From assembly GCF_002854065.1 (NCBI RefSeq), contig NZ_CP024147.1: a stretch of DNA of 64,000 bases. The stretch is one strand, 5' to 3'. This document shows positions 51,398-52,060 of this stretch, piece by piece (position 1 is the first letter of the stretch; each line of letters opens with the position of its first letter). The notes under the pieces were generated by a model. It saw nothing but the letters and a program-made list of their open reading frames with translations. It ran no database searches and was not told the origin of the DNA. The position numbers and the translations under genes were made by a program. The stretch comes from Escherichia coli. GTDB lineage: Bacteria; Pseudomonadota; Gammaproteobacteria; Enterobacterales; Enterobacteriaceae.

Positions 51398-52060
51398 ATG
51401 CCAGTACTGACAAGAGGCGATTCACATATGATCGTGATGCCCACCACCTATAGCCCTATGACGGTTGCTCGTTCTTTTCGCGTGGTGGAAGAGATCGAGC
51501 TTTCTGGACGTCTGTTACAGGTAATTTATGACAAGCAGACGCCAAGAGCGGCCATCATTGAAGCGGACATTGAAGTTTTTGCAGGCGTGCCACGTCATAG
51601 GGTACATGCCGCTCTCGATCTGCAGCGTAAAAAAGAGTTCGGCAGCGATATCATTGCCGTTGAACGCTGGTGGGAAGACTCGGATCTGGTACAGGTAGAA
51701 GGTATTTGTGTCTCTCCTGGTGAGCGCGATAAGGGGCTGGCAACTCGGCTGTATGAAGCGCTAATCCTGCAATGCGGTATCACGCTAATCAGCGATTTTG
51801 ATCAATATGATGGTGGGAAGATGCTCTGGCAGAAGATCGCGCGCGAGTCCGATCAGATTTCAGTGTTTGTATTAGACACTGAACAAGGGGCATTTTGGCC
51901 TTATGATGGCACGAAAGTGATCTACGATGGCGGTTGCATTCCGGAAGAGCGTATCTGGAGTATTTCACCGGATCAAAAATGTCATGGCATTGTGCTGGTG
52001 GCGGAAAATAAACAGCGAGCTAACCAGCTAATGGAAGAGTCTGCGCCTTACCGAGTTTGA
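51398..52060 (+). CDS. hypothetical protein, possibly GNAT-like (start uncertain)
   Basis: ORF frame 51275..52060; ATG candidates at 51347, 51398, 51428; weak GNAT motif-A-like segment VSPGERDKGLATRLYEALI; no other recognisable motif. Confidence 0.5.
   Translation: MPVLTRGDSHMIVMPTTYSPMTVARSFRVVEEIELSGRLLQVIYDKQTPRAAIIEADIEVFAGVPRHRVHAALDLQRKKEFGSDIIAVERWWEDSDLVQVEGICVSPGERDKGLATRLYEALILQCGITLISDFDQYDGGKMLWQKIARESDQISVFVLDTEQGAFWPYDGTKVIYDGGCIPEERIWSISPDQKCHGIVLVAENKQRANQLMEESAPYRV

Follow-up and report, generated by a model that had tools for sequence, protein, structure and literature searches.

What is the gene that lies between lmvK and yjdP in a few strains of E. coli? The window that we analysed, which is a 64,000-nt stretch of an E. 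coli genome, contains a cluster that encodes a response regulator, a kinase, an aldolase, a D-lyxose/mannose isomerase, an ABC transporter, and a hybrid sensor kinase. This cluster is the published island OI167, lmvR-lmuKAIZYX-lmvK, which we identified via the work of Yang et al. (2023; PMC10128022). In EDL933, LmvK and LmvR sense mannose and regulate both the lmu genes and the LEE, and the OI167 paper does not mention the open reading frame at 51398-52060 that follows lmvK (PMC10128022). A preliminary description of the locus considered this ORF to be unannotatable, but RefSeq already lists an N-acetyltransferase there (WP_032282010.1). To this generic label we add confirmation of the fold, a link to PHROG 7522 and to PmgF of P1, a start codon, a putative promoter, independence from the kinase, and decay in EHEC. 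We think that the gene encodes a stand-alone, highly divergent acyl-CoA-dependent transferase with the GNAT fold, of about 220 amino acids and from the mobile-element family PHROG 7522, and we put the probability of this reading at roughly 0.6.

The ORF is a real, intact gene. As described previously, it is uninterrupted: on the + strand, the frame runs unbroken to a stop codon at 52058-52060 and would encode 220 amino acids from the ATG at 51398. The 901 bases around it are 100% identical to those in E. coli XJ34, XJ6-3, and CUWW06. In a word-indexed search, 5.8 billion proteins yielded 61 relatives, all of them from Enterobacterales, which are 47-86% identical and 205-220 amino acids long. 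Among orthologues from Citrobacter, Enterobacter, Lelliottia, Leclercia, and one further enterobacterial contig, the median pairwise dN/dS is 0.049 (range 0.024-0.122). A ratio of about 0.05 implies that the frame is under strong purifying selection, so the ORF is more than a chance occurrence. An Rfam search over 51200-52250 gave no match.

Translation could begin at several places, as the preliminary description also stated: eight starts are in frame (GTG 51275, TTG 51305, ATG 51347, ATG 51398, ATG 51428, GTG 51434, ATG 51437, and ATG 51458). The RefSeq/PGAP annotation (WP_032282010.1 in strain XJ34) uses ATG 51428, which gives a protein of 210 amino acids (51428-52060, + strand). We favour ATG 51398 instead, so that the coding sequence for the 220-amino-acid GNAT-fold protein would be 51398-52060, including the stop codon. 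The ten codons ahead of the RefSeq start (MPVLTRGDSH) are kept as MPVLxxG(D/S)Sx at more than 30 loci from at least seven genera, and within them, 2 to 5 synonymous codons occur for each of P, V, L, G, and S, which is the pattern of a translated sequence. Also, the proline of the N-terminal "MP" is found in 110 of 120 aligned family sequences (in distant members it is internal, with 10-30 further residues before it), residues 3-5 form a strand in the better of our structure models, and the PHROG 7522 alignment begins at residue 1. It is for these reasons that we prefer 51398.

There are candidate ribosome-binding sites for both starts. A Shine-Dalgarno-like AAGGA, as read from the sequence, lies at 51390-51394, which is just 3 nt before ATG 51398 and is a short spacing. 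In other genera, there is a better-spaced GGA or GAGG ahead of the equivalent start, and the phage-plasmid copies start with GTG and have GAGG 9 nt upstream. An AGAGG within the extension, 10 nt upstream of ATG 51428, could serve the second start, and both starts may be in use. The counterpart of ATG 51428 is the sole remaining start in Escherichia sp. E1V33 and in a short copy from Winslowiella. Some databases contain longer forms that begin at GTG 51275 (261 amino acids) or ATG 51347 (237 amino acids). We rejected these forms: they begin upstream of the promoter motif that we discuss below, and their extra residues are not conserved.

To which family does the protein belong? It had been described as having no clear family signature, but the PHROG 7522 profile covers its full length: residues 1-204 align with positions 3-204 of the 210 in the profile, at E = 4.1e-65. 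The N-terminal part has a further match, to phrog_7349. When we searched 1.84 billion cluster representatives exhaustively with a profile, we identified 509 relatives at E <= 1e-3, most of which have 195-235 amino acids. The more distant relatives are lysine-rich and resemble proteins of AT-rich phages. Other sequence resources say little. The sole signal from Pfam is Acetyltransf_1 at residues 90-123 (34 residues), which is marginal, as its E value of 0.0018 misses the threshold of E <= 0.001. Across the family, Acetyltransf_1 is found at E <= 1e-3 in 2 of 120 members and at E <= 0.1 in 14 of them. NCBIfam has no match to the protein at E <= 1, and sequence searches against the PDB, whether we used the protein by itself or either of two profiles, produced chance-level matches only.

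Structure prediction, which had been proposed as a check, was decisive where the sequence profiles were uninformative. An AF2 model built from 27 close homologues had a pLDDT of 76, and a model built from 120 diverse family members had a pLDDT of 91.4 and a pTM of 0.88. The predicted structure has the GNAT alpha/beta fold. When it is compared to AFDB50 with Foldseek, the protein's own family ranks first and generic GNATs come next. These models show a GNAT fold, and it is very probable that the protein is a modifying enzyme of the GNAT type.

The preliminary description did point out a weak stretch similar to GNAT motif A, and it was right to do so. This stretch (VSPGERDKGLATRLYEALI, 51710-51766, + strand) is exactly at the Acetyltransf_1 signal, and conservation in the family and the predicted secondary structure also mark it as motif A. 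After strand beta4 (residues 96-105) comes R110-D-K-G113-L-A115, which has the form Q/R-x-x-G-x-G/A in the beta4-alpha3 loop, and then helix alpha3. R110-x-x-G113-x-A115 is predicted to be the loop that binds the pyrophosphate of acetyl-CoA. Across the 120 members, position 110 is R, Q, or K in 95, position 113 is G in 99, and position 115 is A or G in 105, while Y119 is present in all 120. A second conserved stretch, SD-x2-Q-Y/F-x-G-G-x2-L-W (51791-51829, + strand), is a signature of the family and runs from the last part of beta5 into alpha4. Here, D133 is found in 120 of 120 members and S132 and W144 in 119 each; Q136-(Y/F)137, G140, and L143-W144 are also characteristic of the family. Y137 is at the usual position of the general-acid tyrosine and is Phe in 36 of the 120. 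Finally, the family has a conserved insertion between beta6 and beta7 (residues 161-197) with the pattern Y176-D-G...I-P-D/E-x2-I-W187; the stretch YDGGCIPEERIWS (51923-51961, + strand) is a candidate for a substrate-binding lid. The window's protein carries P2, Q99, Y119, S132-D133, W144, Y176, and W187, each of which is kept in 110-120 of the 120 members.

Given this structure, we can propose how the protein might act. The gene would have its own transcript, from about 51368, and would be translated from ATG 51398. The protein would bind acetyl-CoA or another acyl-CoA in the cleft between beta4 and beta5 and would pass the acyl group to an amine of a protein or of a small molecule. S132-D133 and the acidic residue 101 would be the likely catalytic residues, and the beta6-beta7 insertion and the N-terminal strand would shape the acceptor site. 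All of this would be independent of LmvK/LmvR and of the use of mannose or lyxose. The nearest folds are those of protein N-terminal and lysine acetyltransferases, and small-molecule GNATs score almost as well.

For every member of the family, the enzymatic reading depends on the predicted fold and the motif, and it is conceivable that the protein binds acyl-CoA without being a catalyst. It could be a sensor or a regulator or could mediate protein-protein contacts, like the C-terminal domain of ICL2. The N-terminal-only homologues that we describe below (P1 PmgF, phrog_7349, and the Pantoea and Winslowiella proteins) would be odd for a single-domain enzyme, and the Phe at position 137 in 36 of the 120 members also speaks against one. 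But the usual catalytic places of a GNAT, as judged from the predicted secondary structure, are occupied by an acidic residue in beta4 (position 101 is D or E in 84 of 120 members) and by an invariant S-D where beta5 ends, and most of the top structural neighbours are active enzymes. We consider a non-catalytic role to be unlikely.

Where did this transferase-like family come from? Its relatives show that it either originated in mobile elements or has been exchanged with phages and phage-plasmids. Using tblastn, we found copies that are about 50% identical in the Punavirus genomes RCS47 and SJ46. There were also matches in 186 plasmids, about 130 of which are from Escherichia and Salmonella. 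Among the plasmids listed, most have sizes of 90-130 kb, and the typing is non-mobilizable for 179 of the 186; these sizes and this typing fit P1-like phage-plasmids. Further tblastn matches are in a jumbo phage of Ralstonia and in small plasmids of Vibrio and Salmonella. Also, when we scanned viral contigs with a profile made from a 12-sequence subset of the 120-sequence alignment, distant members turned up in 13 contigs of 19-292 kb, among early and nucleotide-metabolism genes, which include those for NAD-dependent DNA ligase, ribonucleotide reductase, endonucleases, and kinases.

In RCS47 and SJ46, the gene comes right behind bplB and is followed by the repL/kilA module. In P1, the position after bplB is occupied by pmgF. 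P1 PmgF has just 98 amino acids. In a comparison with the RCS47 protein, it is 43% identical across residues 14-76 of the latter (E = 4e-16), and it also aligns with the family profile (hhalign probability of 97%) at about residues 15-77 of the 220-amino-acid protein. A tblastn search of P1 with the RCS47 protein did not detect the C-terminal two thirds in any frame, not even as a remnant. Other short proteins of about 95-125 amino acids that have only the N-terminal part (the phrog_7349 type) are found in Winslowiella and on Pantoea megaplasmids; these and P1 pmgF (1075-1371 of our P1 extract, - strand) may be relics or may have a function of their own. We also noticed that two large phage contigs carry either two paralogues (4001-4627 and 7147-7752) or a full copy and a fragment (3959-4642 and 6269-6535) within 3 kb.

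This distribution raises the possibility that the protein is a phage-derived factor for host takeover, anti-defence, or defence, which would acetylate a protein of the host or of the phage during infection or lysogeny and would be moron-like in chromosomes. Not only is the family widespread in large phages, but the slot in P1-like phage-plasmids, rlfA-rlfB-pmgF, is one of their eight hypervariable regions (PMC9603915, PMC6906374), and a CRISPRi screen found that pmgF is not essential for the lytic growth of P1 (PMC10695390). The gene's apparent promoter and its repeated loss, both discussed below, and the protein acetyltransferases that are its closest structural neighbours also agree with this idea. 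On the other hand, PADLOC found no match to a defence model for this protein or for three relatives, even at E <= 0.1. When we clustered the neighbours of 14 phage loci, no partner gene was common beyond closely related phages, so the phage context does not give a functional clue. And the long-term purifying selection in chromosomes fits a metabolic or detoxifying role equally well. We are doubtful that a role in phage-host conflict is the explanation, although a bolder version is worth stating as a speculation: a phage-borne GNAT family that acts in such conflicts may have been domesticated, as a self-promoted module, in several Enterobacterales, with PmgF as a truncated relic. If the family does act in phage-host conflict, then the intact chromosomal copies would be handy experimental material.

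In one phage-like metagenome contig (45-3376), a distant member lies in a packed array of genes on the same strand, with an Endonuclease_NS gene on one side and a CoaE/guanylate-kinase-like gene on the other. A CTP_transf_like nucleotidyltransferase gene lies further down the same array. These CoA- or nucleotide-related neighbours are suggestive, for this one locus.

Returning to the chromosomal copies, the GNAT-like gene appears to travel with its own promoter. An extended -10 promoter-like motif (TGnTAnnnT, here TGCTATTGT at 51353-51361, + strand) lies 45 nt upstream of ATG 51398 and is conserved across genera. Regardless of which gene is upstream, 26 of the 28 distinct upstream regions have TGnTAnnnT 42-57 nt ahead of the start, as compared to 57 of 1422 segments of 90 nt (4%) across the 64-kb sequence. 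We infer that this motif is the gene's own promoter. A generic scan for promoters (-35/-10) and terminators did not identify a promoter upstream of the gene or a terminator after it; it was the comparison across genera that revealed the motif. The gene also has a different base composition than its neighbours: its GC content is 49.6% and its GC3 is 48%, as compared to 56-59% and 65-74% for lmvK, the lmu genes, and phnP. This difference in GC3 points to a separate origin for the gene.

Furthermore, chromosomal copies occur in at least four unrelated contexts. Besides the site next to lmvK, there is a copy in the pmbA-cybC neighbourhood in Yersinia and there are copies after rsmI in Buttiauxella and Cedecea, all with no kinase nearby. 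On another contig, two LysE-family genes (rhtB/rhtC-like) flank the gene, next to recQ. We suggest that this is a single-gene module that carries its own promoter and moves between phages, phage-plasmids, and chromosomal hot spots.

Could the gene be part of OI167 in a functional sense? It had been suggested that the protein could be a modifying enzyme linked to the signalling system; more broadly, it might be a partner of the LmvK/LmvR two-component system or of the island's lyxose/mannose pathway. Both lmvK (49051-51315) and the gene are on the + strand, and the gene begins 82 nt downstream of lmvK. Escherichia, Citrobacter, Enterobacter, Lelliottia, Leclercia, and one further enterobacterial contig all have the order lmvK-gene-yjdP-phnP. 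In the genomes with this linkage, the gene is 68-97% identical to the window's copy. LmvK is 72-81% identical to the window's LmvK in the other genera and 98% identical in Escherichia sp. E1V33. Such similar divergence of the gene and of LmvK is the level expected for a block that was inherited or moved as a unit. So the adjacency to lmvK predates the split of Escherichia, Citrobacter, Enterobacter, Lelliottia, and Leclercia, or else one block moved among them; in either case, the gene is not a recent add-on.

Most E. coli that have the island do without the gene, however. We searched 5,426 complete E. coli genomes, of which 390 contain the 3' end of lmvK. The 3' end of our gene is retained in 34 of the 5,426, and its central part in only 6. 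Among the 390 with lmvK, the gene is intact in 5; 28 have a 401-bp deletion (51455-51855 in the window) that shifts the frame; one, a goat isolate, has another deletion; and about 356, of which we checked O157:H7 EDL933 in detail, have no trace of the gene. The 28 genomes with the 401-bp deletion are essentially O145:H28, and in O145 RM9872, whose alignment defines this allele, the gene is annotated as a pseudogene. Damaged copies also occur elsewhere: the copy in Escherichia sp. E1V33 has no upstream start, and the copy in Leclercia sp. 29361 is truncated. Our census shows that the gene has been lost or broken in most island-bearing E. coli (about 385 of 390) and is decaying in EHEC, with at least three independent losses documented in EHEC lineages.

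These losses bear on the link to signalling. A check for co-occurrence with the sensor kinase had been proposed, and the association failed on both sides: few lmvK-bearing E. coli have an intact gene, and kinase-free homologues exist in Yersinia, Buttiauxella, Cedecea, phage-plasmids, and phages. The lmv and lmu phenotypes were observed in EDL933 (PMC10128022), which does not have the gene. As LmvK/LmvR work in EDL933 and its mannose response is intact, the gene is dispensable for that circuit. The gene's conserved promoter motif and its different base composition also argue against a shared role. So the "modifying enzyme" of the preliminary description is very probably right, but membership in the kinase circuit is not supported, and we think that a partnership with LmvK/LmvR or with the sugar pathway is very improbable.

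Another alternative to a stand-alone transferase is a toxin-antitoxin module in which the GNAT protein is the toxin and, like TacT, AtaT, or KacT, acetylates aminoacyl-tRNA. Such a toxin would have a cognate antitoxin beside it. The 82 nt upstream of our gene are non-coding, the downstream gene is yjdP, which belongs to the backbone, and we found no small ORF that is conserved beside the gene in any context that we examined, nor any other neighbour that is conserved across contexts. Also, dozens of other GNATs score at least as well as AtaT, and PADLOC gave no match. Because there is no antitoxin gene, we regard a toxin as a most improbable reading.

The position of the gene also refines the map of the island. 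From about 52123, which is 6 nt before the ATG of yjdP (52129-52458, + strand), the sequence is again similar to that of K-12-type E. coli, so the ORF is the last gene inside the variable block, and 52122/52123 is the block's right edge. This is the junction between cluster and backbone where the preliminary description had placed it. Its other proposal, that the gene is cargo of the acquisition event, is partly borne out: the gene is inside the variable block and has an unusual GC3, but it is no recent addition beside lmvK. In O157:H7-type islands, the annotation of EDL933 and our alignment show that the entire stretch 51304-52122 is absent, which takes away the final 12 nt of lmvK and all of the ORF. 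The identity between EDL933 and the window ends at 51303, or 12 nt before the stop codon of lmvK, and a K-12-type yjdP leader follows directly. Thus, the right border of OI167 in O157:H7 is inside the last codons of lmvK. This can be seen by comparing 17500-17690 of our EDL933 extract (NZ_CP008957) to 51292-51315 of the window: the last four codons of lmvK are replaced in EDL933, and its LmvK has 756 amino acids instead of 754. The published border of the island (lmvK...yjdP) hides both this junction within lmvK and the extra gene in other lineages.

We made a few other observations around the island. A stable hairpin at 52101-52129 (AAGCCAGTC...GACTGGCTT) spans the island/backbone boundary near 52123 and ends at the ATG of yjdP; the 80-nt stretch has a folding energy of -18.3 kcal/mol (z = -3.0). 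As the hairpin is not followed by a run of T, it is not a canonical terminator, and it could occlude the initiation of translation of yjdP. The divergence of this haplotype is not limited to the island. Across 52123-52700 (yjdP-phnP), the window is only 90-95% identical to 5,267 of 5,431 E. coli records and is at least 99% identical to only 22, so the divergent haplotype reaches past the island into yjdP and phnP. Within the island, lmuX (- strand), which encodes the ATP-binding subunit of the ABC transporter, has a 1-nt deletion in a run of G at 47690-47693 (GCGC-GGCC, as compared to GCGCGGGCC in XJ34 and O145). The deletion splits a gene for a 506-amino-acid ATPase into ORFs at 47618-48994 and 47418-47657. 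Unless this is a sequencing error, it looks as if the island's transporter is frameshifted in the window's strain while the GNAT gene is intact.

One implication is for the phage family: PHROG 7522 was previously without a function, and it now has a predicted fold, a family assignment, and a link to P1 PmgF. How does it compare to known systems? One comparison within the window is to PhnO, the aminoalkylphosphonate N-acetyltransferase, which is encoded just 1.3 kb away (53314-53748, - strand) and belongs to the same superfamily by its fold. We considered whether our gene is a local duplicate or paralogue of phnO and rejected this, as hhalign gives a probability of 0.9% for PhnO against the family profile. 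(In EDL933, the phn operon's own canonical GNAT gene, phnO, carries a frameshift according to the annotation, at 18825-19260 of our extract.) Within the GNAT superfamily, the closest solved folds are Hat1, ESCO1/Eco1, NatD/Naa40, Naa50, and the insect arylalkylamine N-acetyltransferases. The predicted core of our protein is like theirs, including R-x-x-G-x-A in the beta4-alpha3 loop and the acidic residue in beta4.

Another close structural neighbour is the GNAT-like C-terminal domain of ICL2 (Rv1916) from Mycobacterium tuberculosis. This domain is non-catalytic and binds acetyl-CoA as an allosteric or regulatory signal. It has no sequence relationship to our protein, and it is part of a large enzyme, whereas our protein stands alone. 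P1 PmgF, which is annotated as a "putative morphogenetic function," is like the N-terminal third of the family and is in the same position after bplB as the RCS47 and SJ46 copies. However, as it does not have the C-terminal two thirds and hence does not have motif A, PmgF cannot be a GNAT enzyme. Another close counterpart is the PHROG 7522 gene of RCS47 and SJ46, between bplB and repL, which is like our gene in its length, in its N-terminus, and in its roughly 50% identity over residues 1-204 of the protein. The difference is in where the two reside: the RCS47/SJ46 gene is carried by a phage-plasmid, while the window's copy is in the chromosome, at the edge of a sugar-utilisation island.
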